From an uncultured Pseudomonadota bacterium (lineage in GTDB: Bacteria; Babelota; Babeliae; Babelales; RVW-14), in the NCBI GenBank assembly GCA_964534555.1, contig CAZHRK010000003.1, forward strand, positions 1-64,000: a stretch of DNA of 64,000 nucleotides. Reading direction: 5' to 3'. The notes beneath the pieces are model-generated. The model had not been told where the DNA came from. It saw nothing but the letters and a program-made list of their open reading frames with translations, and searched no databases. Made by a program: the position numbers and the translations under genes. How positions within the stretch are numbered: the stretch's first letter is position 1; the number at the start of each line of letters is the position of its first letter. This document shows positions 26,009 to 47,232 of the stretch, in pieces.

Positions 26009-27817
26009 ATGAGACACAGAAATACTCTAAGGTTGGTAATAGCGTCTTTTTTCCTGCTATCAAGTAATGCGTACGGTGCTCTGGCATTTGAAGCTGTCAA
26101 AGGTGCTGTCTCTGCACTTGGTGGCGTAGTTGCTAGTGGTGCTGCTCGTCTTGCAGCAGGTGGTAGGACCTCATCAGGTCTTCCGCGTTTTGTAGCAGCG
26201 GAAGCTGATGCGCTTATTGAAAGCTGTCAATTTGACCGCTTGAGTAGCTACGTGCTTCAATTTGTTGATGCTGGCTCTCCAGCATACAGCGAAGATGCTG
26301 TAGCATGGCTTAGAGCTGTTAGAGTAGTGCCATGTTTGCCGATTAAGTATCTTTATACTCGAATGATATTTGGGCAAAACTCTCCTAAAAAAGAAGATGT
26401 TTTAGATGCGCTTGTTGATGTGCAGGCATCTTTATTATTATTTGTTGTTGATGCGTATATTTGCCAAAACGCAGGGCTATTTCCAGAGGTTAGCCCTTTT
26501 GCTGATGCGTATACAAAAGCAAGAACATCACTCTTGGCTCCTTGGGCTGGGTTAGTTGAATTTTTGCAAAACAAATTCTTTACACGTTTTATTGATTCAA
26601 AATACCCGCAGCTGGCTTCTTTGCTAGCGGAAAAAGAAAATGTAGATAACGAGTTTTCGTTTACGCAAACATACGCACGGCTTTGTGAGTATATCGCACG
26701 TCTTTCTGATGAAGATTTGTATATTCCCCCACAAGTGATGTGCAAAGTATATTTGCCTTCAGTAGCAGGGTGGTCTCATACAGGTAAGATGGCTGCAGAT
26801 GCATTATCAGCTATCAGAGTTGCAGATGTTGGGCTTCATTTTGGTAATAGTGAGCCTGATATACTTGCTCGTCTAAGATCAGGGATAACAGATCAAGCGC
26901 GTTTCAGGGGTTTTCGTGCATTGTTTACAAAAGCCACACTACGAATGTTTAGAGCTATTGGATCATGGGGTGATTTACTAACAACAAGGATTCCTGATCG
27001 CATGGCTGTTGCGCTTGACCGAGCTGAGTACAAAGAAACGCTGTTTCCGCTGCCAGACCGTGCTGCTGTGGTGGATGGTGGCGCCGCTGTTAGTGGTACA
27101 TTGTCATCACGCTTGAGTGCTGCTGGCAGTGAACGTCGTGGCCGTGCGCCATCAAGTGGTCTCACTGCTGCCGAGCCTCCTGCAGCCACAGGCTCTGTTG
27201 GTAGAGCTCCAGTCCCACATAACCCATTAAAAAAGACAATCGGCGGAGCTGGTTTACAAAGTGCTTATTCTGGGGCATTTGCAGGGCTGCCACCAGATGG
27301 ATATACATCTGGTGAAACGTCTGATGATGATGGCAGTGGGTCTGACAGCGATACTGCTGAAGGATCTCCTGTTGCTGCAGCTGCTCGCTCAACAAGATCT
27401 GTGCCAGCCTTAGCTGCCCCTTTAGCTCGTGGTGCTGCCCGGGGTGGTGGTCGCTTGGTCGACGCTAGTGGTAGCGCTGCTGTTGGTGATTTAGAGGCTT
27501 CGCTTGAAGCGCTTACGTTACATTCTGCGTCAGTGCCTACAGCTGAAGCTAATCCTATGGCTTCTAGCATGATGGTTGCGGCAGGAGATCTTGCTGGGTT
27601 GCGTGATGCTCGTGCAGATGTTCATGCGCTTACACCTACATCTGAGGGTGATGAGGCTGCCGATGGTGCAGGTGGTGAGGGTGCTGATGACAGTGGGACA
27701 TTGAGTGCTGCTGCGTCAAGCGTGGTTGATAAACCAGGAGATGGTCATGCTGGAGATGGCCATAGAAGTGGCGGTGGTGGCTCTGGCAAAAAGGGTAAAA
27801 AAAACAAGAAAAAGTAA
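26009..27817 (+). CDS. hypothetical secreted protein with long Gly/Ala/Ser/Asp-rich disordered C-terminal half and polybasic tail
   Basis: Start MRHRNTLRLVIASFFLLSSNAYGA (RBS agggtgagg); C-terminus ...GGGGSGKKGKKNKKK. Confidence 0.5.
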   Translation: MRHRNTLRLVIASFFLLSSNAYGALAFEAVKGAVSALGGVVASGAARLAAGGRTSSGLPRFVAAEADALIESCQFDRLSSYVLQFVDAGSPAYSEDAVAWLRAVRVVPCLPIKYLYTRMIFGQNSPKKEDVLDALVDVQASLLLFVVDAYICQNAGLFPEVSPFADAYTKARTSLLAPWAGLVEFLQNKFFTRFIDSKYPQLASLLAEKENVDNEFSFTQTYARLCEYIARLSDEDLYIPPQVMCKVYLPSVAGWSHTGKMAADALSAIRVADVGLHFGNSEPDILARLRSGITDQARFRGFRALFTKATLRMFRAIGSWGDLLTTRIPDRMAVALDRAEYKETLFPLPDRAAVVDGGAAVSGTLSSRLSAAGSERRGRAPSSGLTAAEPPAATGSVGRAPVPHNPLKKTIGGAGLQSAYSGAFAGLPPDGYTSGETSDDDGSGSDSDTAEGSPVAAAARSTRSVPALAAPLARGAARGGGRLVDASGSAAVGDLEASLEALTLHSASVPTAEANPMASSMMVAAGDLAGLRDARADVHALTPTSEGDEAADGAGGEGADDSGTLSAAASSVVDKPGDGHAGDGHRSGGGGSGKKGKKNKKK

Positions 27818-29505: not shown

Positions 29506-31446
29506 ATGATGGTACGTAATTTAAAGCTGGTTCTTTTGTGTGCATTTTTTGCACATGGATTTATGTATCCAGCATCCTCTTCACGAGGGTTCTTTTCGTC
29601 GATTTTAGATTTTTTAGGTTATGGGACATCGTTTTTTTCTACTGATGCTTTAAGGCCAGAGCCTGTCGATGACTCGCTTGTTATTTCGTATGTCGGTAAT
29701 GAACCAGTCGGACATCCATTTAGTGTGTTACCGTGTCTCCAGCAAAGACAAAGAATCAAGTCAGGTGAGCTTGCCTTAAAAGATGCCTCTTATAACGGCT
29801 GGGAGTGCGGTTTTTACTCTATTTATCACGCGCTCAAATCAGCAGGGCTGTATCCGGCGCCATCTGGTGCTGCCGGTGCTGCTAGTGCCGCTGCCGCAGG
29901 AGGAGCTGCCGCAGGTGCGCCAGCTGCAGGAAGATTTGATTGCCATGAGTATCGAGCTTTTTGGGATAACTTTGTTCAAAAAGACCGCGACTTGCGTGCA
30001 CGATACCCTGGCTGCAGAGTTCTTGATCCAACAGTTTATTCATTTGGAGCGCGCAGTACTGGTGGGATAGAGTTGCCAAATAGTGAGATTTTAAAACTTA
30101 TAGTTGGCTTAACGATTTTACCTGAGGCCACCCTCGATACGTACTATCGTAATCGATCAGACCTCGGACCTGCTGATGGTAGATTTCAAGAGTTGTGGGC
30201 ATCTGTACAAGCTGCTCACCCATCACTTTTTATTATAGACAAAGATCTTATTTTAGGACTTGCTGCAGGTGAGGATGTCCAACCAATTCTCCAATTAATG
30301 CGTGATCAAGGTGATGCCCTGCGTGTTATTATCTCTACTGGAGCTCATTGGATCTGTTTTGGGAAGATTCCTGGCGAGCAGGGGCTTTATTGTTTTGATT
30401 CGTATCAGACAGCTGGATTGGGTCGTGTTGGCCGAGATGTTACAGACTTAGGTGAGTTGCTTGCAGCGCGATTGTTTAGGCCTGCAGATGCTGCTACTCA
30501 TGCATTAGTTGATCGTATGAGGGAAGCGGCGCTTATGCCTCAAATGCAAGCGCTTTGGGATGCGGCAGAAGATAAAAGAAAAAAAGATGAAGCACTTAAG
30601 ACTGCTCTAGCAGCGTCTTCTGGTCCTGCTGTTTCTTTAGTAAGTGATGCGCCTGAAGAGCGTACACTAGCTTCAAAGCGCTCACGCGCTGAAGCTAATC
30701 TTGAAAAAGTTTCCCGACCTAAGGCAAAGCGATCACGTAAACTACAAACAACTATCCCGTTTTCTGTTGTTGAAACAGAGGCATCAGCTAAAGGAAATAC
30801 TCATGTATTTGCTGCAATTGCAGCCTACAGAGAGCTTATGGAAGATGATGCTATTACGCCTGATTCTATCTGTGCTGCTTTTGGCACCAGTGTTGATGCT
30901 TTATCTAAATATGATGCGCAAACCATTTTGGAAATGATTGATCACGAACATGATGTAATCATTTTTAATCAGCTGTTTCATGGTAACATTTCTCATGTTG
31001 TAAGAAATCGTTCATGGGTTGGAAAAATTCACCAACTACGACAAGCGCTTCGTTCTGGAGAGCGTGCTGTTTTTATTATGCCTGTAGCCGCTGATCATTT
31101 GGTTTGCTGTGTTCTTGATGAGGATACTACAACAGGTGAGATGGAAATTAAAATTTTTGATCCGCTTAATCCAACCGCAGCAGATGGTACGGTACTTGAT
31201 CCTATTTACACCGTCTTACAAAACCTATTATTACGCGACAAGTTTGTTACCCTTGACTCATTTGACTCACTAAACGCAGCATTAAAAAGAATTAAGCCAG
31301 GTGCGACATTGTCAGCAGCAAAAAGGGTTCTTGGTAAGACTAAATCAGAGCTTTTTTCAGCAGATGAATTGCGCGCACTCCTGCGTTCAGTTAATCCAGA
31401 AGAACTCGTTATAGACTCTGATTCATCAGAGAGCGATGACGAGTAA
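29506..31446 (+). CDS. secreted two-domain protein; N-terminal putative Cys/His papain-fold hydrolase (UCH/OTU-like)
   Basis: Signal peptide MMVRNLKLVLLCAFFAHG. NGWECGFYSIYHAL resembles the UCH Cys box NxCGx3(LI)(LI)HA(LI) and the OTU DGNCxFY; distal GAHWICFG His box. Ala/Gly-rich linker, Lys/Glu-rich central region, acidic C-terminal DSDSSESDDE. Paralog of 6097..7050. Confidence 0.5.
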   Translation: MMVRNLKLVLLCAFFAHGFMYPASSSRGFFSSILDFLGYGTSFFSTDALRPEPVDDSLVISYVGNEPVGHPFSVLPCLQQRQRIKSGELALKDASYNGWECGFYSIYHALKSAGLYPAPSGAAGAASAAAAGGAAAGAPAAGRFDCHEYRAFWDNFVQKDRDLRARYPGCRVLDPTVYSFGARSTGGIELPNSEILKLIVGLTILPEATLDTYYRNRSDLGPADGRFQELWASVQAAHPSLFIIDKDLILGLAAGEDVQPILQLMRDQGDALRVIISTGAHWICFGKIPGEQGLYCFDSYQTAGLGRVGRDVTDLGELLAARLFRPADAATHALVDRMREAALMPQMQALWDAAEDKRKKDEALKTALAASSGPAVSLVSDAPEERTLASKRSRAEANLEKVSRPKAKRSRKLQTTIPFSVVETEASAKGNTHVFAAIAAYRELMEDDAITPDSICAAFGTSVDALSKYDAQTILEMIDHEHDVIIFNQLFHGNISHVVRNRSWVGKIHQLRQALRSGERAVFIMPVAADHLVCCVLDEDTTTGEMEIKIFDPLNPTAADGTVLDPIYTVLQNLLLRDKFVTLDSFDSLNAALKRIKPGATLSAAKRVLGKTKSELFSADELRALLRSVNPEELVIDSDSSESDDE

Positions 31447-32030: not shown

Positions 32031-32765
32031 ATGAATAAAGTACGTTTATTAGGTTTTTCGCTGCTTGCTTTAGGCTGTTTTTTTTCAGGTCTTAAATCTG
32101 CTGCTGCGCCAGCGCCTGCAACGGTTGAGGCTGTTGATGCTGGATGTTGTGGTGGATGCGGCCTATGGGTTCGTGCTGCTGCGCCAGTTGCTTTTCAGAT
32201 AGCGGGGACAGTCGTAACTGCTGCGCTTGCAGCTGCAGCTGATGGTGGAGATGGTGCTGCAGTAGGTGAGGCAATCACAACAGCTCTATTTAGTAATGCA
32301 GATAAATTTGCAGCTACAGCTGTTAAAGGTGTAGAGCATGCGCTCAGAGAGCTTATGCGCACAAACCCTGGTCTTTTTAACAAGCTTAATGCTGTTGCAC
32401 GCGGTGCTTCAGGTGCATGGGAGAGTCTGACCCCAGTAGATCGTGCAAATCTTGTAAAAATTGGTCTTCTCCATGGAACAGCCGCTTCAGCAACATTGCC
32501 TGTTGAGCTTCGCGCTATGATTATGGCTCTGTGTGCTGATATCTCTGCAACAACGAGCCGTAGTGCAGCTGCAGGGTACACGCTGGTTGGTGTTGCTGGA
32601 AATGTGAATTTGGTTCCACTTCGTTCATGGGACGCCGGAGTATCTGCAGTAGCTACACGTAGCGCTGCGTATGCAGTCAGAGAAGGTCGTGAGGTTGGAA
32701 TGCTTCTTGGTGCAGTACTTGAAAGGTCTGTAACCGAGACTCATGCTGGCGAGCGCCGTAGCTAA
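32031..32765 (+). CDS. hypothetical secreted Ala-rich protein
   Basis: Signal peptide; Ala-rich, locally elevated GC; resembles 50264 and 50967 ORFs in composition. Confidence 0.5.
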   Translation: MNKVRLLGFSLLALGCFFSGLKSAAAPAPATVEAVDAGCCGGCGLWVRAAAPVAFQIAGTVVTAALAAAADGGDGAAVGEAITTALFSNADKFAATAVKGVEHALRELMRTNPGLFNKLNAVARGASGAWESLTPVDRANLVKIGLLHGTAASATLPVELRAMIMALCADISATTSRSAAAGYTLVGVAGNVNLVPLRSWDAGVSAVATRSAAYAVREGREVGMLLGAVLERSVTETHAGERRS

Positions 32766-33090: not shown

Positions 33091-34092
33091 TTACAAATAA
33101 GGGACAGGTCCATCATCGTCAAAAATTGATGATTCATCGCCTTCGCTCTCCACCGGGGTGTCTTTTATGCCATAAAGCTCTTCAAGTGTTTGTTGGGTAG
33201 TTGGGTCTGCTATTTCATCCTCAAGGCTATACCCTTGAGCACCCTCTGCGGGCTTCACTTTTGGCTTTTGGGCTACTTTTGAGGTTGCTGGATGAGTTAT
33301 GGTGGGGGTGGGCTCTGAAATCAATTCATCGTCAGCGTTGTCGGCTTCATCGTTTGTTTTGTTTTCTGGTGTTTGCTCACGTGAAAGCACACTGTCAAAA
33401 TCGCTTGATGCTTCAGCTGCGTCGAAAGGCTTTGCTTCATCTGGTTCTTCAGCGTCTTCATCAGTGTAGAAGGGACTTTGTTTTTTTGCTGCTAATGCTT
33501 GATCTGCAATGCTTTTTTTAATTTTTTCTAGCGAGCTGCCCATCGCATCAACAACTTTATCGCTTACAGCTCGTTTTGCTTGCTTGAGTGCTTGGCTTGC
33601 TGTTTTTGCCATTCGTTCTTGGGCCTGTTTTTTATTCCGGGCGCTATCTTCTTTGTACTCTTCAACTTTTGTTTTGGCAGTTTCTTTAACGTCGCTGACT
33701 TTGTCTTTAAGTCGATCTGTCAGACTTGGTCCTGTGGCACCATATTTTTCACCTCGTGCAGCACTGCGCGCAGCTGCCTGGGCATCTTTTTTTTCTTTTC
33801 GCTGTGCATCAATAACTTTTTGCTCTGCGGCCCGTATTTTGTCTTCTGTTCGCTCTTGGGCTGTACGACGTTTAAGCGCAAGCTCCTCTTTGTAGTCTCG
33901 CGCTGCTTCTGCTGCGCTTTTTTCTTTTGTCTCAGTTTTTACTTCTTGTTTGGGTGGAGCGACTGATTTCTTTCTTACGGAGATGCTCTCAACAGCGCTT
34001 GATGGTTCAAGCAGTTCATCATAATCAGTTGCGCACTCTATGGGTGAAAAGAACTGCAGCCCAATAAGTGCAGATAACAATTTTTTTTTCAT
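33091..34092 (-). CDS. secreted highly charged (Lys/Glu/Ala) coiled-coil protein with acidic C-terminus
   Basis: Signal peptide MKKKLLSALIGLQFFSPIECA; the codon bias of the K/E/A-rich body generates several antisense shadow ORFs (33201..33966). Confidence 0.55.
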   Translation of the reverse strand: MKKKLLSALIGLQFFSPIECATDYDELLEPSSAVESISVRKKSVAPPKQEVKTETKEKSAAEAARDYKEELALKRRTAQERTEDKIRAAEQKVIDAQRKEKKDAQAAARSAARGEKYGATGPSLTDRLKDKVSDVKETAKTKVEEYKEDSARNKKQAQERMAKTASQALKQAKRAVSDKVVDAMGSSLEKIKKSIADQALAAKKQSPFYTDEDAEEPDEAKPFDAAEASSDFDSVLSREQTPENKTNDEADNADDELISEPTPTITHPATSKVAQKPKVKPAEGAQGYSLEDEIADPTTQQTLEELYGIKDTPVESEGDESSIFDDDGPVPYL

Positions 34093-34109: not shown

Positions 34110-35468
34110 CTATTTAGAAATCATATGAATGATGTGATTGATCGTTTTCTCACGCGTTACAGTATGCAGCAGCGTGCCAAAGTTAATCGGCATATCTGCG
34201 TCTTCGATGTGATTAATAAGCGGCTTGAAATAAACGAATTCACGCAGGCGCTTATTTGAAATAAGGTGTAGGTAGTTAATAATGTCGCGTACGTCTGCCT
34301 GTATGTTTTCTGATTGACTGATCTGGTCAATAATAATTTCTTCTTTAAGTTGCTTTTCTGCAAGGAGTTGCACGAATTCTTCAAAGTCTCTCTGGGTTTT
34401 ATACACGTTGTAATCGGGCTGGCTAGAGAGCATGTTCATGATGAGCTCTTCTCTTCGAAGTACAAGGTGCTTCGGCACCTCAAATCTGTGCTTTGAGAGG
34501 AGCAAATGAAAGACTTCTTCTATAATTGCTTTTCTTTGGGAGATATCGTTTCTGTATGAGAAGATCTCCATTAGTTTGTTATGAATATCTTGTTTGCTCT
34601 TAAGCTTGTACGTTGATTTGAAGATATCAAGTGAGAGGATGCCGCCCTTAATAATCGTTTTGATTGTGATAAGAAATTTGTACGAGCGGTTATCAATAGC
34701 GTCATCAGGGTGAAGAACTAAGTCTGTGGTATAAAATTGCTCGTTAATTTTTTTGCCTATCATCTGGCATATAAATGCTTCAGAGGCATCTTGATGGCTA
34801 ATACGCACCCAAAAAGTGCTTTTAAGCGATGCATCAAGTGGATGGTTGTTTTTATCAACAATTTCAGACTCAAACATTACCCAGTCATTAGTTTCAACAA
34901 CAGAGCTTAAAATTTTATCGTTTGATGGCCTGCTATCAATAAAACTAATTACTTGTTTATCAAGGTCTTTATATTTTTTACGCTTTGGTGATTTGAACGC
35001 AAAATGACGCCACTCTTTTAAGTCGCCATTATCAGCAATTGAGATATCAAAATGAAATTTAATATCTTGATTTGCTGTTGTTTCTGCGCCTGTTAAGCGT
35101 GGGTAATTTGCCACAATAATTTTATTGCCAGCAAGTTCATGAAAAAGAAAATCAACGACATGATGGTTGAATAGGTAGTTTTTCATTGAATTCTTGATCT
35201 GACCACCGTATGTGGCTTCGATATGGCTATCAGGAAGTACGCTTCCATCAAAACCTTCAAGATACATGTCTTTGAAAAGAGATATTGTGTGCTTTTTTAT
35301 GATGTCGACAACATTTCCATTAACCGTAACCGTTGCTTTAACAAGGTGAGATGATAACGGAATAAATGTGAATGAAAGGTGCTGGTATGCAGCTGTCGCT
35401 AATTTAGTGGTAATGCTTGATTCTAGTGAGCCCTGCTCAGACGTCAAATGCTCAAGTATTTCGCTCAT
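34110..35468 (-). CDS. cytoplasmic protein, possibly a divergent trigger factor
   Basis: 452 aa, no signal peptide, size and weak GFDGSVLP (~GFRKGKVP) N-domain resemblance to Tig; assignment tentative. Confidence 0.4.
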   Translation of the reverse strand: MSEILEHLTSEQGSLESSITTKLATAAYQHLSFTFIPLSSHLVKATVTVNGNVVDIIKKHTISLFKDMYLEGFDGSVLPDSHIEATYGGQIKNSMKNYLFNHHVVDFLFHELAGNKIIVANYPRLTGAETTANQDIKFHFDISIADNGDLKEWRHFAFKSPKRKKYKDLDKQVISFIDSRPSNDKILSSVVETNDWVMFESEIVDKNNHPLDASLKSTFWVRISHQDASEAFICQMIGKKINEQFYTTDLVLHPDDAIDNRSYKFLITIKTIIKGGILSLDIFKSTYKLKSKQDIHNKLMEIFSYRNDISQRKAIIEEVFHLLLSKHRFEVPKHLVLRREELIMNMLSSQPDYNVYKTQRDFEEFVQLLAEKQLKEEIIIDQISQSENIQADVRDIINYLHLISNKRLREFVYFKPLINHIEDADMPINFGTLLHTVTREKTINHIIHMISK

Positions 35469-35485: not shown

Positions 35486-35572
35486 TGGTGCAAGAGGGGG
35501 GACTCGAACCCCCATCCTCTTACGAGGGCTAGCTCCTAAGGCTAGTGCGTCTACCAATTTCGCCACTCTTGC
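35486..35572 (-). tRNA. tRNA-Leu (anticodon TAG)
   Basis: GCAAGAGTGGCGAAATTGGTAGACGC...CTTAGGA anticodon loop, long variable arm, TTCGAGT T-loop, encoded CCA; 87 nt. Confidence 0.85.
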
Positions 35573-35666: not shown

Positions 35667-35742
35667 TGGTGGGTCGCCAGGGACTCGAACCCTGAACCTG
35701 CAGATTAAGAGTCTGTCGCTCTACCGATTGAGCTAGCAACCC
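35667..35742 (-). tRNA. tRNA-Lys (anticodon CTT)
   Basis: GGGTTGCTAGCTCAATCGGTAGAGC...CTCTTAA loop...GGTTCGAGTCC...GCGACCCACCA, 76 nt cloverleaf. Confidence 0.85.
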
Positions 35743-35866: not shown

Positions 35867-38800
35867 CTATTTCTTTTTAGCGGCTTTCTTTGACGCTGCT
35901 TTTTTAGCCGCAGGCGCACCTTTTGTTGCTTTTTTAGGCGCTGTTTTTACTACTGTTTTTGCCGGTGCCTCTGCTTCTGATCTCTTTTCAGCTGCGCTAG
36001 CAGCTGGTGCTTTATCTTCAGCTGCTTCTTTTGCTGGGGCTGGTTTTTCATCGCTTTCATCAGGCACTGCCGCTTTAGGCGCAGCAACTTTCTTACCGCT
36101 GAGCAGCCTATTATTAAGCGTGATATTTCTGAATGTCACCGGTGTTTCCCAGCAGCTTAGTCCTATCCAGCTTATGCCTTCAATAGGATATGGGTCCGTC
36201 CATGTGAGCGTTGTGCCATTAGCAGCCTGAATCGTTATTGTTCCGCTGCGTAGTGTGATAGTGATTTTAGTTGGTTGGAATGCATTCAGCACACCACTTG
36301 CAAATGCTTTCTTTGTGACGGATTTAAATGCTTTGCCAAGGCTTTGTAGTCTCATCGCAAGACAGCTGTTATCAAATGCTCCGAAATGTAATTCATAAAG
36401 TTCTTTGCCTGAATTGCGCACCATGCTGCTATCATCAGCAAAACAAACCATAGCGTCTTTAAGTCCCTCGACTTCAAAGCTCAGTGAGAGTTCATTTGTT
36501 GTGTCGCTTGTTACTGGTAGCCAGATATACTCACCATAACATTTATCAATTCGTAGTGAGCTGCTTGTTCTTAAAATCTGGTGAGCCATTTTGTTTGCCC
36601 AAACATAAACAACCTCACGTTGGTCTGATCCTGCGGGAATAAGGAAGCTGTTATTAATCGCTGATAGTAGCAAGTTAAGCATGCTGTTGATAACGCGTGG
36701 GTTTGGTGTAGCTGAGTCATAAAGTGTTGGGTAGCTCGTGATCAAAAGCTCAATTATGTCATTTATTTTTTGAGCTACAAAATCAGAAACAACGTATGAG
36801 TGCGTTAGCAGGTAGATCACGTCTTGTGTCATAACGACAAGGCGCTCGAAGTTCTCTGGCGTAGTTGGTTGGAGTGAGCTTGTTGCTCTCAGTGTTGCCT
36901 CAGCTGTCTTACGATTATTTCTTGCATCCTCTGGCACCATCGCTTCTCCCAGTGGGATGCGTTCTGGTGCGTCGACAAACACATAGCTATCGTGGCTTTT
37001 GAATGCAAATTTTGCTTGTCCAGCGATAATGTTAGCATTAAATTTTGCTTGTGCGGCAGCGGTTTCTAATTCAAGCGCGCGCTGTTGTGCTGCAGCAGCA
37101 GATTCAGCGCCAGAGAGATCTCGTTGCGCGGCTGCGACATATGCTTGACTTGACATGCCTGCTGTAATAATAGCTGCAGTACCAGATGCGGCGGCAAATC
37201 CGGCACCCACACCGGCGATAATAATATTGTCACTCATTGCCAGCGCGCCACCAACCTTAGCACCCACCGTTGCGGTTGTATCTGCAATTTTAAGGAGCGA
37301 GTCTCCTTGAGCTCGACTCACATCACCTTGGGCGCGGGCGAGTTCTTTAAGTCTCTCACCATCAGCGCGCATGATGTCTGCTTTTTGTCGCTCAAGTTCT
37401 GCTGAAGCAGCAGCCTGCACGATCATCTGTTTGATTTTTATTTCTTGTGGGTTTTCAGGTGCTTTTGTCCAATCAAGCTTTGGCGCACCATCTGGCATAA
37501 CCGTGAGTGTAAAGTAATACAGTGCGCCTTGTTGCGGTGTTGCTCCGGCATAAAACGTGGTGTTGTTTACCATGTCGTCAAATTTTACAGACTCGTTTAC
37601 CTGAGAGACTCTGTATGAAAAAGGAAGGATGATGGTGATATCGCCTTCATAAATATTACTGTCGCTTGTAGCTGTTTTGCGTGCGTATTGGGTTGAGCGC
37701 TCGAGTATGAGCTGAACCGCATCAGCTATTTCAACTTCTTTAATAAGCGCATCAGGGGCATCGGTTGTAAATCCAACTTCTCTGATATCTGTAAGTGGGT
37801 TTACATCTTGGTAGACAAATGATGTATCGTTTCCGATATTGCCGTACCCAATAATAAAACGACCATTATTGTAGCTCACCCAAGGCGTAATCTCGCTGTC
37901 TTTTGACAGGTAAAGACCGTCTATTTCAACAACATCGCATGATCCGCGCTGGACGTACGCACCTTTAATGAATTTATAAATTACAATTTTCTTAAAATCA
38001 TCATCACCAAAGGTAATCTTGTAATGTGGTTTTGTAAGGTCTTGCCCTTGTGCCAAAATGAGGGAAGTTTTACCGCTTGCTTTTAGCGTAAAGCCAAGGG
38101 AGCCTTGATCGGCTATTCTGAGTGGTGTTTTGGTCCAAAGTGCCGCGCTTCCTCCAGCGGGAACAGTAAGTGTTTCAGTGCCTTCGTAATAAATACGATC
38201 CTGTGGTCTTGTGACGATTGGTCCATAAATTTGTATTTCTGCAAATTCAACAAGCGTTTTATTTGAGGCAAAGCCTATGCGGTTTACAAGTGGCATTGGA
38301 TCGTCTGTGCGATACGCCATAAAGACGTTCTCGCCCGGTAGCCCCATCCCGACAAGGATCAGTCCGTTGTCGTATGTCACCCAGTATGGTGTAAAGTTTC
38401 CAGGAGAAACAGCTGCTAGCGGGTTTTCTTTAACATCAATAACACACACGACATCGTCAACTGGTTCGTTGTTTTGTATTGTGCGCTGAATGATTGATGC
38501 TTGGGTGTTTTTAGCCCCACCAATAACAACTTTGTAGTCAAATGTATTATTCACCTCGTGGCCAAGGACAACCTGAATATCACCTTGATCATCAGCTTTT
38601 GCAACAAATCCAACGGTGCATCGATTATTAACTGGGAACGATTCATTAAGCCATGCTGCGCCTTTTCCAAGAAGCGGTTGCAGCTTAAGTGATGCTCCTT
38701 TTTCAAGCTTGATTGATGTTTGCGCTGATCCTGAAACTGTCGGTCTTTGGCGTACTGGAATTTCAAAATCAACAGAGTCTTGTGGTGGCACATTCCCGCC

Positions 38801-40822
38801 GTTTCCAAGGTCAATAATTTCAAACGCTACAGCAGAAAGATCCGATGGATCAAGAGCGCTGCCATCAGCATTTGTGGTAACTGCTATCGTAAGGTCACGC
38901 ATTTCTGTGCGCCCCGGAATAACTTTTTTAGTAATTCCCGCGCTGGTAGCAATTGTTGATAGCCATTGCTCTGATTTGTTCCAGCCTTTACCGTTCCAGG
39001 TGTAGAGCATTTGTTCTGCTGTATCGATCATATAAACCATCTCGTTGTTGCGAACCGAGATTTGTTTGATCTGTGGATTGCCTGCTGGAGCATCAACAAC
39101 AGCCCAGCTCTTAGCGTCGTAGTCATAGCGCCAGACACGGTTTTTATCATCAACTGCCCATACAGCGAGCTCTTCTGATGCAGACATAGTCACAATTTTT
39201 GCGCCTTGTGGCGATTGTGCTTTCCAGCTTTCACCGTTGTAGCTATAAATCGCGCCATCAACACCAAGGCCCCACATTTCACGGGGTGATATAATTGAAA
39301 TCTCTTTAAAACCAGGGCCTTTATCAAGCGGTGCCCAGCTATTATTTTGTCTCAAATAAGGCACGCCATCATTATCGAGCGTTACTGTTTGCCCCGCGCT
39401 GTTGACATCGACGTATTTAAATTTGAATGAAGATGGAATTTGCGTCCAGGTGCCGTTTTCAAATTTAAAGAGGCTTCCTTCCTGCGCTATTGCGTAAGCA
39501 ATTTCAGCCGATTGGAGCGCGAGTGATTGGAAGTAAATAAATGGCTCTTCATCAAGTACAGGATAGCTATTAAGCGTTGCAAGTGATCCTTCATCAGCGC
39601 CCGCACGAACGCTTAAAATACCGTTTTCGTTTAATAGTTTAAAAACCTGTTTAATGCTCATCTCATGACGAATTCTTATTTGTCCGTCGTCATCGGCAGT
39701 CCACCAGCCAAACTTGTTTGCTGTTCTGTCCCAATAATCACGACGTGCTGCGCCCCAGTTCCATGAGCTGTCTTGGCCATCATCTCTAAGGCTTTGAAGT
39801 GAAAAATCTGTGCAGTAGCGGAGCGGTTGGTTTGCAGGTGTTTTATTTATATCTTCATTATTCCATGTTGTTCTGAGCCATAGGCGCATTAATGTTCTGC
39901 CATCACCATTATTTGCAGGTTCTCTGTAACAAATAATATCCGCGTCGTTTTCACGAAATACAAAAAAGTTATTAAGGCCAGCATTTCTAAAATTAATATC
40001 ATGCCTGCTCAGCACTGCTTGTCCGTTTGTTTCGCTCTTGCCACCAAAAGTTACTGTATATTGAGCGTTTGGAGCGATATTACGAGCAATATCACCTTTA
40101 AGCGGTCTGTCATCACCATCATGGCGGTAGAATCGTTTTCTTCTTTGTGAGTAAATCGTTACTTTGTCACCGTATTTTACTTGCGGTTTATACACACCCC
40201 AAAGTGATGGTGAACGCAGAATTTGTTCGGTATCTTTTTCTACTTTAACCTCGACAGTCCCTTGATAAGGCATTAATACACCGCTCAAGCGATTTTTGAG
40301 ATGGCATTTGCCCAGATCTGAGCCAAGCAGTTCCCAGTGGGCGGCTTTGTCTTCATCATCGTCAAATGCTGTTGATGGGAAGCCTACAGGAGAGCGATTG
40401 CCTGGTGCGTACTGGCATGTAAGATCTTTTGTTATCGTGCTCTCAATCCCAATCCAATCTCTAAGTGGTGGTGATGAGAGCTTTCTTACGATGGTGAACT
40501 CTGTGGCTTTGTCGCTCGCATCGTTTGCATCAGCAACAAAGATCCATTTTTTATCGGCGTTTAACCTTGCTGCATAGTACTTTCCGCTTGCAATATGGCG
40601 TATGCGTACTGTTGTTCCATAAGGAAGGCTGTCATGTAATGTTTTTTCAAATGCGATTGATGCCGGATAAGGTGAGCCGTTTCTAATTCTATCAAGTACT
40701 GCATAACCAAATTTAGGCAGCTCAGCAAGAATGTCGGGAGTTTGAGTTGCGAATTTATTATTACTTTGCGGTATGAGCAAAAACGCTACACACCACAATA
40801 GCTTGAAGATATAATTTTTCAT
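35867..40822 (-). CDS. giant (~1650 aa) secreted protein with tectonin/tachylectin-type beta-propeller repeats, a duplicated ~130-aa domain and a histone-H1-like Lys/Ala/Pro tail
   Basis: Start MKNYIFKLLWCVAFLLIPQS (signal). W-x-G...VWGVN-like repeats (WAPLDKGPGFKEISII..MWGLGVDGAIYSY, WKAQSPQGAKIVTMSA..VWAVDDKNRVWRY, WAVVDAPAGNPQIKQISV..VYMIDTAEQMLYTW). Internal repeat ...FTPYWVTYDNGLILVGMG.. / ..ITPWVSYNNGRFIIGYG... C-terminal AAPKAAVPDESDEKPAPAKEAAEDKAPAASAAEKRSEAEAPAKTVVKTAPKKATKGAPAAKKAASKKAAKKK. Confidence 0.7.
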   Translation of the reverse strand: MKNYIFKLLWCVAFLLIPQSNNKFATQTPDILAELPKFGYAVLDRIRNGSPYPASIAFEKTLHDSLPYGTTVRIRHIASGKYYAARLNADKKWIFVADANDASDKATEFTIVRKLSSPPLRDWIGIESTITKDLTCQYAPGNRSPVGFPSTAFDDDEDKAAHWELLGSDLGKCHLKNRLSGVLMPYQGTVEVKVEKDTEQILRSPSLWGVYKPQVKYGDKVTIYSQRRKRFYRHDGDDRPLKGDIARNIAPNAQYTVTFGGKSETNGQAVLSRHDINFRNAGLNNFFVFRENDADIICYREPANNGDGRTLMRLWLRTTWNNEDINKTPANQPLRYCTDFSLQSLRDDGQDSSWNWGAARRDYWDRTANKFGWWTADDDGQIRIRHEMSIKQVFKLLNENGILSVRAGADEGSLATLNSYPVLDEEPFIYFQSLALQSAEIAYAIAQEGSLFKFENGTWTQIPSSFKFKYVDVNSAGQTVTLDNDGVPYLRQNNSWAPLDKGPGFKEISIISPREMWGLGVDGAIYSYNGESWKAQSPQGAKIVTMSASEELAVWAVDDKNRVWRYDYDAKSWAVVDAPAGNPQIKQISVRNNEMVYMIDTAEQMLYTWNGKGWNKSEQWLSTIATSAGITKKVIPGRTEMRDLTIAVTTNADGSALDPSDLSAVAFEIIDLGNGGNVPPQDSVDFEIPVRQRPTVSGSAQTSIKLEKGASLKLQPLLGKGAAWLNESFPVNNRCTVGFVAKADDQGDIQVVLGHEVNNTFDYKVVIGGAKNTQASIIQRTIQNNEPVDDVVCVIDVKENPLAAVSPGNFTPYWVTYDNGLILVGMGLPGENVFMAYRTDDPMPLVNRIGFASNKTLVEFAEIQIYGPIVTRPQDRIYYEGTETLTVPAGGSAALWTKTPLRIADQGSLGFTLKASGKTSLILAQGQDLTKPHYKITFGDDDFKKIVIYKFIKGAYVQRGSCDVVEIDGLYLSKDSEITPWVSYNNGRFIIGYGNIGNDTSFVYQDVNPLTDIREVGFTTDAPDALIKEVEIADAVQLILERSTQYARKTATSDSNIYEGDITIILPFSYRVSQVNESVKFDDMVNNTTFYAGATPQQGALYYFTLTVMPDGAPKLDWTKAPENPQEIKIKQMIVQAAASAELERQKADIMRADGERLKELARAQGDVSRAQGDSLLKIADTTATVGAKVGGALAMSDNIIIAGVGAGFAAASGTAAIITAGMSSQAYVAAAQRDLSGAESAAAAQQRALELETAAAQAKFNANIIAGQAKFAFKSHDSYVFVDAPERIPLGEAMVPEDARNNRKTAEATLRATSSLQPTTPENFERLVVMTQDVIYLLTHSYVVSDFVAQKINDIIELLITSYPTLYDSATPNPRVINSMLNLLLSAINNSFLIPAGSDQREVVYVWANKMAHQILRTSSSLRIDKCYGEYIWLPVTSDTTNELSLSFEVEGLKDAMVCFADDSSMVRNSGKELYELHFGAFDNSCLAMRLQSLGKAFKSVTKKAFASGVLNAFQPTKITITLRSGTITIQAANGTTLTWTDPYPIEGISWIGLSCWETPVTFRNITLNNRLLSGKKVAAPKAAVPDESDEKPAPAKEAAEDKAPAASAAEKRSEAEAPAKTVVKTAPKKATKGAPAAKKAASKKAAKKK

Positions 40823-40947
40823 AAGAAAGCCTTTATGGATCAGGAGCTTTGATTGATTAATTTGTCTCAATGTAAGAACCTGCTGCACTGTAAATCAAGA
40901 ATATGGTATGCTCATGGCCTAAAGTTTAGTAGGGCCTCTTAGGTAAG

Positions 40948-42299: not shown

Positions 42300-43439
42300 A
42301 TGACTATTCGACTCGTTATGTCGACGGGCTTTGCCTTGTTTGCAATGCTTTTTGGTGCTGGAAATATTATTTTCCCACTCGTTCTTGGCGCTCATTCAGG
42401 AGATAAAGTTCTGTATGCGCTTGCTGGTTTTGCTATATCTGGACTTTGTATTCCGCTTATTGGTGTGATCGCTGCTCTTATGTATCAAGGCGATTATGAA
42501 AAACTTCTTAGCCATCTCGGTCGAGTGCCGAGCTCCGCGCTTATTGCGCTCTGCATGATGTTGATTGGACCTTTTGGGTGCATACCTCGTTGTATGTCCA
42601 TAGCTCACAGTGCTGTAAGCTGGCACATTCCTTCCCTACCGCTCCTTTTATTTAGTGCACTTGCTGCCGGCGTTGTGTATGTTTGCGCTGCCCAGCGCGG
42701 CGCGCTTGTAAATGTTTTGGGGAGTGTTTTGGGCCCTATAAAACTTACACTCTTGCTTGGGCTTGTTGTTATTGGTGGTGTGAATGCTGGTAAGATGCCC
42801 GCAGTTGATCTTGCAAAAAGCACGCTTTTTCTGCAGGGGCTATTTGATGGTTATGGCACCATGGATCTGCTCGGAGCGCTTTTCTTTGCAGGGATCTTAG
42901 CACGAGGCCTGAAAGGTAAATACCAACAAATATCACGACGCGACTTTATGCTTATGACTGTGGTGATAGGGGTTATCGGTATTGTGCTTTTGGGTATTGT
43001 CTATGGCGGCTTCTTTTTTGTTTCTGCAGCTTATGCGGGGCAACTTGTTCACCTTGAGCGAGGGCAGCTGTTGTCTGGCCTTGCCACGCTTGTCCTTGGG
43101 CAGTATGGTGGAATGGTGGCAAATATAACCATTAGCCTTAGCTGCTTAACAACAGCAATAGCGCTGACATCAGTTTTTTCTGACTATATTCGCGGGTTAA
43201 GCGGCAACAGACTTTCGTATAAAACCTGTGTTGCAGGGACTGTGTTGATTGCAACATGTATGACAACGCTGGGCTTTCAAAAAATTATGGAGCTCATTTA
43301 TCCTTTGATTGGCATGTGTTATCCAATCCTGCTTATTGTTGCGTGTGCTGGGCTTTTACATAAAGTTATTGGTGTAGTTGTTCCCCGCCACTCAATGTAT
43401 GCAGCATTTATGCTTTTAATGCTTATGAAATTGTTTTAA
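42300..43439 (+). CDS. brnQ: branched-chain amino acid transport system II carrier (LIVCS family)
   Basis: N-terminal GFALFAMLFGAGNIIFPLVLG hallmark, 12 TM. Confidence 0.8.
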   Translation: MTIRLVMSTGFALFAMLFGAGNIIFPLVLGAHSGDKVLYALAGFAISGLCIPLIGVIAALMYQGDYEKLLSHLGRVPSSALIALCMMLIGPFGCIPRCMSIAHSAVSWHIPSLPLLLFSALAAGVVYVCAAQRGALVNVLGSVLGPIKLTLLLGLVVIGGVNAGKMPAVDLAKSTLFLQGLFDGYGTMDLLGALFFAGILARGLKGKYQQISRRDFMLMTVVIGVIGIVLLGIVYGGFFFVSAAYAGQLVHLERGQLLSGLATLVLGQYGGMVANITISLSCLTTAIALTSVFSDYIRGLSGNRLSYKTCVAGTVLIATCMTTLGFQKIMELIYPLIGMCYPILLIVACAGLLHKVIGVVVPRHSMYAAFMLLMLMKLF

Positions 43440-43446
43440 TCAAAAA

Positions 43447-43476
43447 ATACCCCCAAGCAAATCAGCTTGGGGGTAT
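43447..43476. terminator. bidirectional terminator (12-bp stem)
   Basis: atacccccaagc-aaatca-gcttgggggtattttt between brnQ stop 43439 and minus-strand RING gene stop 43479. Confidence 0.55.
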
Positions 43477-43478
43477 TT

Positions 43479-43871
43479 TTATGCTATAAAGTTTTCTACG
43501 ACGGCGTAGGCAAGTGCTAAAATTATCAGTGCGGCCTCTTTCTTAAATGGTGGCCTTTTTTCTTTATAAAGCCGCCTGCGCTCAATCGTTTCTGTATACT
43601 GCCTGCACAAAGGACATTCATTCTTTCCTGATGCAGTAATCCATGCAGATAGGCATTCAGGGTGAATTATGTGGTGGCATTCGGTCATGTTTTCATCTAT
43701 CTCTTCAGCTGGTTCTAGACAAACGCAGCATCTATTTTCGTTTTCAAGGGATTGTTGACTAGCAGGGTGAATTGGCTGTGTTGTAAAGTTGACTGTAAAA
43801 AGTGATAGTGCAAAAAGAATTATAAGCATTTCGCTTTCGAAGGGGTATAAACTGACCGATATGATAAACAA
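43479..43871 (-). CDS. membrane-anchored/secreted RING-H2 zinc-finger protein (eukaryotic E3-ligase-like)
   Basis: CCVCLEPAEEIDENMTECHHIIHPECLSAWITASGKNECPLCRQ = C-x2-C-x14-C-x1-H-x2-H-x2-C-x14-C-x2-C. N-terminal hydrophobic segment; start may be TTG at 43871 or ATG at 43829. Confidence 0.7.
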   Translation of the reverse strand: MFIISVSLYPFESEMLIILFALSLFTVNFTTQPIHPASQQSLENENRCCVCLEPAEEIDENMTECHHIIHPECLSAWITASGKNECPLCRQYTETIERRRLYKEKRPPFKKEAALIILALAYAVVENFIA

Positions 43872-43970
43872 GGGCCGTAATTATATCAGTCTGATTGATC
43901 TCTTGCAATCATAAAGTAGCCCTGAATCAATATTTAGGACTACTTTATGACTATTGTCGACAGTTTAAAT

Positions 43971-45425
43971 TTAATTGATTTGTGATAATGCGAGTGTTAA
44001 AGCTTTTGCTATAGCATCTGTATTATGTGTGACAGCGTTTTCGATTGATTTATACAAGTCAAAAAACTCTTTGCCGGTATAGCTAAATTTACTTGTTGGG
44101 AAATCAAGCTTGTTCGGGACGTGGATAATAATTGGGGTCTGCTTATCTGTCGGGTCTGCCCAGATAGAGAGAGGTTTTTCAGCAAGCTGAGCATAGTCGA
44201 TTTTCGGGAATTTATAGCCGTGTGCTCGTGCCCAATTTTCAACTTCACGCATGTCAGTACCGAGTGCTGAATTTGCATCAGTCCCCGCGTCACAAACAAA
44301 ATAAATCTTTACGCCGCGTCTGAGCAGGGGAGGGAATGGAATATTTGTTGCCATACCAGCATCAACAAACGTTAGTTTTCCTGCTTTTCCTAGTGGGGCC
44401 TGCAGTCCATGAACAAAATTAGGTATTTCAGGCGCGCTTATCCGTGCATTATTTCCCCAAAACCAATTAAACCAGCTTGATGAAATATCGATGTTGTGGG
44501 AGACCTGGAGTCCTTCTTTTATAAACTGCAGTGCGTCTATGACGCTTCCTGCGTATGCAGAGCCAAATATTCCCATCATAAATGCAAGGTTTTCCCCGGG
44601 TGAGGTATCTTGTGTGATTCCATTTTTAAATGTTTTGCCGAAAAGTTGTGGTTGAATCCAGCCTTTAAAATAGGTGCTCCCGATCTCAAATGGTGAGTAT
44701 TCAACCCATTGGTAATCTGGATTTGTTTGACCAATAATTGAGGTGAAAAGTGGTACAGGGTAGTCGCCAGATAGCGTATGGGGTGCTAGGTCCTCAAGAT
44801 TGAGATCAAGCCCATGATTAGTTGGGCTTGATAGGAAAACATTACCTATCAGGTTGCCCCATAAATCATTCAGCCCAATTGATTTGCCCTGCCATGCTTT
44901 GCTCGCTATTTTTCTTGAGATCGCTTTTTCATCAATATTTTTTAAGCTAAAAGCTTCGTAAAGTTTGCTTTGTAAGCGTGAAGTAAGTGCAATTGGAGAA
45001 ACTTTATGTGTGTACCATGATGCGGTTGTCCAGGTTGATCCTGATAGGCTTGCAATATATGTCACAGCATCAAGGAGTCCAATCCGCTCAAGGCCTCTTA
45101 AGAGCCCGAGTGTTGCAATTGCAGCGCGAAACCCCCCACCACTTGCAGCTACAGCGATCATAGGGATATTTTGACCAAGCGGATACGATTGCCCTAAAAG
45201 TTTTTGTAGCGCGCTTCTATTGCGGCTAAGTCTGTTTCGTAGGGCTGCAAGTTCATTTATTGAAGGAGCATCCCCCTGACGAACTTGGCCAATAATAGGA
45301 CCAGTAGTTGCTTGTTGAGAAATTCCCTTTTTTTGATAATGAATAACTTTGCTGAGGGTGTGGCTGTACGCTTGGCTTGTGCTTAAAACTATAGCCATGA
45401 GCATGATCATGCATGTTGATAGCAT
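43971..45425 (-). CDS. secreted cytosolic-PLA2-type (PLA2_B) lipase, second paralog
   Basis: Signal peptide; IAVAASGGGFRAAIATLGLLRGLERIGLLDAVTYIASLSGSTW matches cPLA2 GGGFRAM...LSGSTW catalytic block. Confidence 0.7.
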   Translation of the reverse strand: MLSTCMIMLMAIVLSTSQAYSHTLSKVIHYQKKGISQQATTGPIIGQVRQGDAPSINELAALRNRLSRNRSALQKLLGQSYPLGQNIPMIAVAASGGGFRAAIATLGLLRGLERIGLLDAVTYIASLSGSTWTTASWYTHKVSPIALTSRLQSKLYEAFSLKNIDEKAISRKIASKAWQGKSIGLNDLWGNLIGNVFLSSPTNHGLDLNLEDLAPHTLSGDYPVPLFTSIIGQTNPDYQWVEYSPFEIGSTYFKGWIQPQLFGKTFKNGITQDTSPGENLAFMMGIFGSAYAGSVIDALQFIKEGLQVSHNIDISSSWFNWFWGNNARISAPEIPNFVHGLQAPLGKAGKLTFVDAGMATNIPFPPLLRRGVKIYFVCDAGTDANSALGTDMREVENWARAHGYKFPKIDYAQLAEKPLSIWADPTDKQTPIIIHVPNKLDFPTSKFSYTGKEFFDLYKSIENAVTHNTDAIAKALTLALSQIN

Positions 45426-45612
45426 AGACTCTCCTTAGACTGTGTTTATGACACGATGAATCAAGGCATTTGTAGCCTTTTTTTATCAAAATCAACAGCC
45501 TAATACAGCACAATCCAAGCGCTAATTGCAAGAGAGGTTGCGCTTTTTTAGGTTAGGTCTATACTACCACCCCCCAAATCACTAGGTTTATTCTCATAAG
45601 GAGCGATTATTA

Positions 45613-46386
45613 GTGTATCGACTGACTGTTAGTTTTATCTTTTTAGTGTCGTTTTTTCTCCCCAATATTTTATCTCGGTCTATTACAGGTTATGAGCATC
45701 CTCTGGGCACAACGCTCAACCGTGTAGAAGAAGTTCCTGAGCATGAGGTTGTCGTTGGTCAAATGATTGATGATCTTGATGGTGACGCTGCAGATGATAT
45801 GGGTGAGAACGAATCGCTGCAAGAAGATCACCAAGAAGCTCCAGTAGATGAAATATGTCTTTTTTGTGTTAATGAAATTACAGCTCTTAATAAACTCCTT
45901 GATGAGTTTTGTATTCTGTCATGTGGGCACAGTGTCCATAAAGATTGTTTGCTCGCATTTTTTCAAGAGCATACAGATACGATTGAAGAGGGTGATGATG
46001 CATTTGAATTTGTTTGCAATGCACATGAGGGACATTCTGAAGACGTTGTGTTTGACCTGCAAGACGCTTTAGATGCTGATCTGCCTGTGATTTTATTTGG
46101 GCTTCTGCAAAATCAAAATCCAGATCTTACACCAACATCGCTTGTTGATTTGGGTGCAGACTTTTTTGAAGGCATGCCATTTTGGTTGCTTTTTATTAGC
46201 AGAATTCTTCCTAAATCAGTTGGTTATTTATATGCCAATAATATTCCATTTTTGCACCACACGTTTGATAATAAAAACCCAATTGAGTGGGCGCATGAAT
46301 TAGGCTTTGAGGGTATTGCCCAAAGGTTTTCTGTGCTGAGAGATCAAGGTCGTTGTATTCCGATACCACTTCCAGATCAGAATTAA
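45613..46386 (+). CDS. secreted RING-variant zinc-finger protein with C-terminal ankyrin-like repeat, paralog A
   Basis: GTG start with AAGGAG RBS; signal peptide; CLFCVNEITALNKLLDEFCILSCGHSVHKDC...FEFVCNAHEGH (C-x2-C-x16-C-x1-H-x2-H-x2-C...C-x2-H); C-terminal NNIPFLHHTFDNKNPIEWAHELGFEGIAQRF. Confidence 0.5.
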   Translation: MYRLTVSFIFLVSFFLPNILSRSITGYEHPLGTTLNRVEEVPEHEVVVGQMIDDLDGDAADDMGENESLQEDHQEAPVDEICLFCVNEITALNKLLDEFCILSCGHSVHKDCLLAFFQEHTDTIEEGDDAFEFVCNAHEGHSEDVVFDLQDALDADLPVILFGLLQNQNPDLTPTSLVDLGADFFEGMPFWLLFISRILPKSVGYLYANNIPFLHHTFDNKNPIEWAHELGFEGIAQRFSVLRDQGRCIPIPLPDQN

Positions 46387-46416
46387 TAGGTTTGAAGATT
46401 ATTTACGGGGTGCACT

Positions 46417-47232
46417 ATGAAGGTGTTACATTTTATAGTATTGCTTAGTGTTACTATCTTGCATGGCTTTGATCTTCAAGCGCGTGTTAGGTTGCCTTGG
46501 CCCTTGGTTCCAGGGGCAAGCGTTGCGCTGCCAAGTCATGGCGCGCCGATTGAAGGCCCGCTTGTTGATGTTCTTCTAAATCCTTTCCCATTACCAGATG
46601 AGGATGAAGCACCGGTTTCTCGATGCATGTTTTGCACAGAGTCTTTTCTTGAAGGACAGGTAAAGGTAGTTTTTGAGTGCGGTGATAGTGGACATAAAAA
46701 TTGTTTGGTTAATTTCTTCCTTGAGCATGTTCATGAGGCATCTCAGTTTTTAGCCACGTTCAACTTTGCTTGCCATCATCATGAAGAGCCACATGATTTA
46801 TTTATTGATCTTGGGACTGCTTTAGCAATTGACTCACCCGAAATATTCTTTGTTCTCCTTGCATCGTCTGAAGACGGAATGGCAATGTCAGAGCTTTTGA
46901 ATCTGAATTTCCCAGGTGATCCAAAACCGTACTGGCTTAAGATTATAGAGTCTGAGGCGCGTGCTATTTTGTCATATATTACCAGCAATAATATACCGTT
47001 TCTTCATTATGTTTATGAGGGGAAAACTCCTGTAGAATGGGCAGAAGACCTAGATCTTGAGGATTATTATCTTGCTCTTTATAACCTGCAAGCAGCGGGT
47101 CGCTGTCTTCCTGCGCCGTCATCATCATTAGGGCTTCTGGTAGGTGGCTATAGTGGTCTTTATGGCGCTATTTCGCCAGTTTCAAGCGATGATGATTCGC
47201 TTTCGATCCATTCGCTTGATACAAATATTTAG
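46417..47232 (+). CDS. secreted RING-variant zinc-finger protein, paralog B (tandem duplicate)
   Basis: Signal peptide; CMFCTESFLEGQVKVVFECGDSGHKNC...FACHHHEEPH; C-terminal NNIPFLHYVYEGKTPVEWAEDLDLEDYY aligns with paralog A. Confidence 0.5.
   Translation: MKVLHFIVLLSVTILHGFDLQARVRLPWPLVPGASVALPSHGAPIEGPLVDVLLNPFPLPDEDEAPVSRCMFCTESFLEGQVKVVFECGDSGHKNCLVNFFLEHVHEASQFLATFNFACHHHEEPHDLFIDLGTALAIDSPEIFFVLLASSEDGMAMSELLNLNFPGDPKPYWLKIIESEARAILSYITSNNIPFLHYVYEGKTPVEWAEDLDLEDYYLALYNLQAAGRCLPAPSSSLGLLVGGYSGLYGAISPVSSDDDSLSIHSLDTNI

Follow-up and report, generated by a model that had tools for sequence, protein, structure and literature searches.

The 64,000-nucleotide window analyzed here (contig CAZHRK010000003.1, positions 1 to 64,000) stems from an uncultured bacterium of the order Babelales and carries on its minus strand a giant gene encoding a 1651-residue protein with lectin-type domains, which is the subject of this study. 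RuvB is encoded upstream and divergently transcribed, while tRNA-Lys(ctt) (35667-35742, minus strand) and tRNA-Leu(tag) (35486-35572, minus strand) are located directly downstream and are followed by the trigger factor gene tig (34110-35468), resulting in the order RuvB, giant gene, tRNA-Lys, tRNA-Leu, tig. The adjacency to the two tRNA genes had already been noticed in the original prediction, made from the DNA letters of this window. The arrangement of RuvB, giant gene, tRNA-Lys(ctt) and tRNA-Leu(tag) is also found at the related loci L003, L010 and L015, RuvB is likewise adjacent at L005 and L007, and the chromosomal position among housekeeping genes is fixed in at least five genomes. As the GC content of the gene (44-45%) is close to that of its surroundings (about 42%) and synteny is conserved, a horizontally inserted island at the tRNA genes was rejected. 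The adjoining tRNAs reflect conserved chromosomal synteny and are not a sign of an island.

The minus-strand open reading frame (ORF) extends over 35867..40888, opening with GTG at 40888 and reading through to 35867. From an ATG at 40822, with AAAGG just upstream, a product of 1651 amino acids starting with MKNYIFKLLWCVAFLLIPQ can be deduced, giving a complete coding sequence at 35867..40822 (minus strand) that includes the stop codon at 35867-35869. The identical protein is encoded without interruption on two independently assembled Logan contigs, and further intact copies are represented by a 97%-identical allele of 1649 residues and by one NCBI copy. Since the ORF is unbroken in at least three independent assemblies, a frameshift or assembly artefact is excluded; the giant frame of about 1650 residues is real, and the splitting by frameshifts for which a check had been proposed was not found. 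Scans for promoters and terminators gave counts not above those in shuffled sequence, and a paralogue of the giant protein was not found within the window.

As read directly from the sequence, the N-terminus (residues 1-24, MKNYIFKLLWCVAFLLIPQSNN; 40751..40822, minus strand) is signal-peptide-like, bearing out the earlier assignment as a secreted protein. A canonical lipobox is missing from these 24 residues, for which reason identity as a lipoprotein was rejected. Comparable hydrophobic, signal-peptide-like N-termini are present in 71 of the 81 long family members. The following residues 25-215 (40178..40750, minus strand) represent a conserved all-beta domain kept in most family members, for which AlphaFold predicts 13 strands between residues 41 and 211 at a predicted local distance difference test (pLDDT) score >90. 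Weak profile matches suggest that this domain is possibly a beta-trefoil of the MIR/IP3R type, the Pfam MIR model (PF02815) scoring 14.3 bits at E 0.04, which is below the cut-off of 25.6, and the family profile of the domain giving a marginal match to the N-terminus of IP3R1 (E 0.008). The list obtained from a fold search with the N-terminal model was filled by propellers and not by matches to this first beta domain. Next, residues 216-430 (39533..40177, minus strand) constitute a lineage-specific Trp-rich region (e.g., SSWNWGAARRDYWDRTANKFGWWTADDDG) modelled at pLDDT <50 and giving no match in a Pfam scan. This region is common only to near-identical alleles, its place in relatives being taken by different beta modules, among them one matching Pfam Fascin.

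The presence of a tectonin-type beta-propeller with at least four repeats, as had been proposed, is well supported by profile and structure comparisons of residues 431-625 (38948..39532, minus strand). When scanning the piece comprising residues 430-640, Pfam Tectonin (PF19193) matches residues 442-620 with 45.8 bits (cut-off 30, E 6.7e-12), covering HMM positions 12-192 of 216. Five blade repeats of about 37-41 residues can be aligned on the pattern [FI]K.[IV]S...W/Y..D.dG..Y.Y.g..W, and AlphaFold, employing a 30-sequence alignment, places 20 strands in this segment at pLDDT >90. In line with these findings, a phmmer search against PDB sequences retrieves tectonin 2 from Laccaria, which is also the closest PDB structure to the modelled propeller (5fsb, E 3e-11, template modelling score 0.74, 19% identity), followed by Ycf48 and the fish-egg lectin fishelectin. 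The Tectonin model is matched by 20 of 25 relatives as well, with a best E of 8.9e-24. Tectonin lectins, such as tectonin 2 from Laccaria bicolor (5fsb), the Physarum tectonins and fish-egg lectin, thus share the Pfam Tectonin repeats and the propeller structure with the giant protein. Compared with the six blades of solved tectonin 2 and of tachylectin-1, only five are visible here, although flanking strands might complete a sixth, and the propeller is one module within 1651 residues. It is followed by a small beta domain conserved across relatives (residues 626-700, core residues 631-690; 38723..38947, minus strand) with the motif ..IEI..LG.GG.I.. and strands modelled at pLDDT 76-97.

A module of about 130 residues had been reported to occur twice. 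The duplication is real, but the unit is larger, with about 165 residues, corresponds to the PF12248 (Methyltransf_FA) domain, and a third copy near the C-terminus had been overlooked. The first copy (residues 701-870; 38213..38722, minus strand) is matched by Pfam at E 2.6e-11 and 43.9 bits. The second one (residues 871-1035; 37718..38212, minus strand) is divergent and could be identified by a blastp comparison with the first copy (22% identity over 165 residues, E 6e-11), appearing also as the third stretch in the whole-protein scan. For the third copy (residues 1423-1572; 36107..36556, minus strand), the Pfam match covers residues 1431-1566 with E 6e-14 and 52.4 bits. Altogether, the whole protein scores 101.4 bits against PF12248 at a cut-off of 24.2 (E 4.6e-29). 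The third domain was modelled as a jelly roll of the ConA-like type, i.e., a beta-sandwich having CBM66, galectins, legume lectins and SPRY domains as structural neighbours, and the first copy is expected to adopt the same sandwich by homology. A Rossmann-type fold for binding S-adenosylmethionine (SAM) is not what the model shows. Hence, according to the structure prediction, PF12248 is a jelly roll of the CBM66/galectin type and not a methyltransferase, the family name being misleading. The resemblance to CBM66 and galectin is one of fold only, at 7-12% sequence identity, and membership in these families is not claimed. With arthropod FAMeT and other PF12248 proteins, the giant protein has in common the domain itself, present in three copies and including the IGGW.N.K..I.R-type motif. 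It differs in being bacterial and exported, in lacking the DM9/DUF3421 partner and in its wholly different architecture. DM9, for which a check had been recommended, did not turn up when the whole protein and ten pieces of it were scanned with Pfam, and identity as a DM9 protein was rejected on these grounds. FAMeT itself may not be an enzyme, as methylation has never been reliably shown and hormone titres are normal in a Drosophila FAMeT mutant (PMC10015273); together with the ConA-like fold of the model, this led to rejection of a methyltransferase.

Between the second and third PF12248 domains lies a central core which the original prediction had missed. It begins with a small beta domain (residues 1036-1124; 37451..37717, minus strand) bearing the motifs ILPF.Y..SQ and ATPQQGALY, of which residues ~1070-1118 were modelled with strands at pLDDT 82-88. 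The two near-identical alleles show zero differences in this domain, and P1067, Y1070, Q1074, Y1102 and G1112 are invariant. Residues 1125-1273 (37004..37450, minus strand) are predicted by AlphaFold to form two Ala-rich helices of about 70 residues each, residues 1125-1195 and 1200-1273 (model residues 96-166 and 171-244, pLDDT ~80-89), packing as an antiparallel hairpin of about 10 nm. Its tip (residues ~1190-1232, ..ALAMSDNIIIAGVGAGFAAASGTAAIITAGMSSQAYVAAAQ; 37127..37255, minus strand) is uncharged, hydrophobic and Gly/Ala-rich and is a candidate membrane-insertion element, with a maximal Kyte-Doolittle hydropathy of 1.82 over 19 residues and a pLDDT <50 in the model. The uncharged run amounts to 35 residues in the giant protein and was found in 30 of 30 relatives examined, showing a median length of 32.5 residues with 26% Ala and 19.5% Gly. 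Small-xxx-small motifs are abundant in the tips of relatives, and the composition resembles that of viral fusion peptides and the VacA glycine zipper. Inspection of the charges flanking the tip did not reveal a clear positive-flank rule. Among relatives, the lengths of the two hairpin arms co-vary weakly (Pearson r 0.40, p 0.037, Spearman not significant), and this correlation is partly carried by two related long variants. The hairpin is succeeded by a conserved segment (residues 1274-1422; 36557..37003, minus strand; pLDDT 84-96) composed of the extended motif FAF(K/R)..DSYV(F/Y)VD.P.R..LG and a bundle of five short helices (residues 1298-1419). A profile of residues 1118-1425 built from 17 relatives found nothing among PDB sequences (best E 2.1), and a Pfam scan of these 17 members gave no relevant family, suggesting that the central helical module is new and has no known relative in Pfam or PDB sequences. 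The lists of both fold searches with the core model were filled by ConA-like structures. No other part of the protein is as well conserved as the helical hairpin with its hydrophobic tip, on which the mechanism probably hinges.

The C-terminal residues 1573-1651 (35870..36106, minus strand) form a low-complexity tail with 25 Ala, 19 Lys and 8 Pro, in which 20 Lys and Arg oppose 10 Asp and Glu. The previously noted Lys/Ala/Pro-rich tail is therefore real, but its likeness to histone H1 or chlamydial Hc1 tails is restricted to composition over the last ~79 residues. A globular histone domain is missing, Pfam models for linker histones or Hc1 are not found at E<=5 for residues 1420-1651, and the sole model matching the tail is a low-complexity stretch of the ValRS model. 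Moreover, the tail is not conserved among relatives in charge, in length or even in presence. Among the 64 tails of at least 30 residues, 18 are basic, 29 acidic and 17 neutral, and the length after the last domain ranges from 0 to several hundred residues, with several relatives being tailless. Between the two near-identical alleles, it is the fastest-changing part, at 27.8% difference. A histone-like DNA-binding protein was rejected in view of the missing model match and this variability. Elsewhere in the window, a strongly basic C-terminus is found in just one ORF, of 626 residues (25937-27817, plus strand), which has no Pfam match, is rich in Ala, Gly, Ser and Asp in its C-terminal half at a local GC content of up to 47%, and ends in a polybasic stretch (..GGGGSGKKGKKNKKK).

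For delineating the family, an exhaustive HMMER scan was conducted with residues 376-1575 as query against 1.84 billion representatives, yielding 494 proteins at E<=1e-3, of which 107 reached E<=1e-30. Identities of 30-39% are seen in the best matches, which align from the propeller through the last PF12248 domain. Word-indexed protein searches with the whole protein, with residues 430-1130 or with a 51-sequence alignment returned essentially the query alone, so that the family emerged only via HMMER, and the diversity within a 25-sequence alignment was too great for finding loci. After clustering representatives at 50% identity, more than 100 have the core, in which the order PF12248, PF12248, beta domain, hairpin, helical bundle and PF12248 is common. 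It is usually preceded by the N-terminal beta domain, while the segment in between varies and comprises one propeller, several or other beta modules. Those members whose annotation was looked up were without exception nameless or labelled "hypothetical protein." Named relatives in genome collections are metagenome-assembled genomes (MAGs) of Candidatus Babeliales or candidate division TM6, apart from a few with generic or probably wrong labels. Relatives were not found in viral contigs.

Divergence is distributed unevenly along the protein. The 64 differences between the two near-identical alleles affect 2-5% of positions in the lectin-type domains but only 0-0.7% in the beta domain, hairpin and helical bundle of the core. 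Relatives have swapped N-terminal modules, dropped them or gained additional copies. Orthologues of the giant protein at the same locus are 34-39% identical, compared with values of 78-82% for RuvB, 70-73% for YebC and 54% for trigger factor. Conserved synteny, these identities at the locus and the uneven allele differences together indicate that the gene is vertically inherited and fast-evolving, with a strongly constrained core.

Combining these results, we tentatively propose, at somewhat less than even confidence, that the giant protein is a Sec-exported, multivalent carbohydrate-binding protein by which an intracellular protist parasite of the Babeliales (Dependentiae/TM6) makes contact with its host. 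The surface or host-binding role suggested originally thus persists as the most plausible reading. The fast divergence at the locus, the swaps of N-terminal modules and the near-invariance of the core between alleles fit a protein that faces the host and retains a conserved mechanical core. The proposal also fits the assignment of relatives to Babeliales and TM6 MAGs and the occurrence of eukaryote-like RING-H2 and cytosolic PLA2-type proteins and, in a relative, of ankyrin/RING-IBR proteins in the neighbourhood. Mechanistically, the signal peptide would carry the protein across the inner membrane, and release or surface display might then be achieved by the type II secretion system, which is conserved together with Sec in TM6 genomes (PMC4776705). 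In Chromulinavorax, 44% of proteins bear signal peptides and infection begins in the food vacuole (PMC6561590). The array of lectin folds, i.e., the MIR-like domain, the propeller with its five visible blades and two ConA-like PF12248 domains, would bind glycans of the host surface or of the vacuole or phagosome lumen, as judged from these folds and the behaviour of related proteins. Subsequently, the core, consisting of the beta domain, the Ala-rich hairpin of ~10 nm, the bundle and the third PF12248 domain, would insert its fusion-peptide-like or glycine-zipper-like tip into a membrane, presumably that of the host, and thereby either anchor the bacterium to it or perturb it. The tail would be a disordered, fast-evolving appendage whose polybasic character in this protein could provide some additional, non-specific binding to anionic surfaces. 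Going further, the core might be an undescribed membrane-insertion device restricted to Dependentiae, acting as a glycan-guided "harpoon" or pore-former for attaching to or breaching the food-vacuole membrane of protists, with interchangeable lectin heads that would set the host range; this extension is advanced with considerable doubt. Some points weigh against the host-contact proposal. Lectin-type folds also serve in protein-protein binding, as in SPRY and laminin G domains, and a hydrophobic hairpin inside a Sec-translocated protein could become stuck in the inner membrane of the bacterium itself, in favour of an envelope tether. Besides, pairing of the hairpin helices relies on one AlphaFold model from a 30-sequence alignment, the correlation of arm lengths is modest, tip hydrophobicity is only moderate, and a fixed position together with an apparent single copy is more typical of a core gene than of an accessory effector.

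Among the alternatives, a strut or tether of the bacterial envelope would have the hairpin staying in the inner membrane and both large lobes in the periplasm, where the lectin domains would attach to peptidoglycan or lipopolysaccharide of the same cell and tie together the degenerate Babeliales envelope. A signal peptide combined with an internal hydrophobic hairpin is indeed the topology expected of a periplasmic protein anchored in the inner membrane, the helical hairpin, at about 10 nm, would match the dimensions of the periplasm, the gene is fixed among housekeeping genes, and tectonin-family lectins are known to bind bacterial lipopolysaccharide. Furthermore, the outer membrane of TM6 bacteria has been described as degenerate (PMC4776705). 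However, the giant protein has diverged much more rapidly than the proteins encoded next to it, as evident from the comparison with RuvB, and exchange, loss and multiplication of N-terminal modules would be unusual for a structural component with an invariant self ligand. In addition, the Gly/Ala-rich tip is only moderately hydrophobic, and a median uncharged run of 32.5 residues is short for two full membrane spans. We regard a tether as unlikely. The short run (35 residues in the giant protein) is nearer to one span than to two and would better suit a single-pass membrane receptor, having one transmembrane helix, the lectin array outside and the bundle, the third PF12248 domain and the basic tail in the cytoplasm, where such a tail could sit at the membrane face. 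Contrary to this, AlphaFold pairs two helices of about 70 residues, the arms of which lengthen and shorten together in relatives, a ConA-like domain homologous to exported copies would be placed in the cytoplasm, and most relatives' tails are acidic or absent, making a receptor of this kind very improbable.

Conservation of the hairpin core and the abundance of small-xxx-small motifs in the tip would also be compatible with a glycan-targeted alpha-helical pore-forming toxin, the lectin domains of which concentrate the protein on host membranes, so that copies oligomerize and their tips form a channel or lesion. Toxins of the ClyA/Xax/Yax type have such a layout, with a long coiled-coil hairpin, a hydrophobic tip and an adjoining helical bundle. 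An antiparallel helical stalk, an uncharged Gly/Ala tip, small-xxx-small motifs and an adjoining bundle are likewise features for which ClyA, XaxAB and YaxAB, the hairpins of chlamydial Inc proteins and the VacA zipper can be compared with the giant protein. Yet, a sequence relationship to these systems is not detectable, lectin-type domains add about 1100 residues to the giant protein, and its export would be Sec-dependent, unlike that by type III secretion. By analogy with ClyA/XaxAB-type toxins or the VacA glycine-zipper channel, pore formation could result in vacuole escape, nutrient access or host lysis, in line with the early exit of Chromulinavorax from the food vacuole and the later lysis of its host (PMC6561590). 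Against a toxin stand the missing similarity to pore-formers in Pfam or PDB sequences, the dominance of ConA-like matches in the fold-search lists of the core model, the hypothetical nature of oligomerization and a size and modularity of the giant protein well beyond those of established alpha-pore-formers, and we consider this role decidedly unlikely. An enzymatic function as farnesoic-acid or other O-methyltransferase, finally, is suggested by the Pfam family name but hardly comes into consideration given the ConA-like instead of Rossmann-type SAM-binding model and a FAMeT activity that was never demonstrated (PMC10015273).

Dependentiae/TM6 bacteria are widespread obligate parasites of protists. 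The gene described here, which despite its fixed position has a rate of evolution several times that of the adjoining genes, defines a large, wholly unannotated family with more than 100 representatives sharing one core, and joins lectin modules typical of eukaryotes (tectonin and PF12248) to a helical module without known relative. If the proposed function holds true, it would provide a concrete candidate for attachment or for engagement of the vacuole membrane in Dependentiae, representing a new architectural variant among lectin-bearing bacterial host-contact proteins within this large uncharacterized family. Independently of this, reading PF12248 as a sandwich of the CBM66/galectin type is relevant to research on FAMeT and on animal thioester proteins.

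Several further genes in the vicinity are worth mentioning. Comparing 42300-47232 of the window with L005 and L015 showed that RuvB and YebC are separated by about 5.3 kb in the window, while they are adjacent to each other at these two loci. This interval represents a variable, effector-like insertion in otherwise conserved synteny and contains five genes, i.e., a BrnQ-type transporter, a RING-H2 protein, a PLA2_B protein and two RING-like ORFs. The RING-H2 protein (43479-43871, minus strand; 130 residues) has a hydrophobic N-terminus and a RING-H2 finger of eukaryotic type (zf-RING_2 at E 1.5e-8, zf-ANAPC11 at E 9e-8), and is thus, judging from these matches, a candidate for a secreted E3-ligase mimic. 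The adjacent ORF (43971-45425, minus strand; 484 residues) combines a signal-like N-terminus with a PLA2_B catalytic domain of the cytosolic-PLA2/lysophospholipase type (E 5.5e-25), and its orthologues with 47-48% identity adjoin RuvB at L007 and L010. The two remaining ORFs (45613-46386 and 46417-47232, both plus strand) are apparent paralogues with hydrophobic N-termini and a Cys/His cluster, sharing a C-terminal ..NNIPFLH...P.EWA.. motif; weak RING matches (E ~2e-3) were obtained for the first of them. On the other side of the giant gene, the ORFs at 29506-31446 (plus strand), 32031-32765 (plus strand) and 33091-34092 (minus strand) show signal-like N-termini and low-complexity regions rich in Ala/Gly or Lys/Glu, do not match Pfam and probably encode lineage-specific secreted proteins. 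At locus L009 of a TM6 relative, two ankyrin-repeat proteins with RING/IBR domains are encoded at 244-3977 (minus strand), directly upstream of the homologous giant gene, displaying a eukaryote-like architecture of the RBR type.

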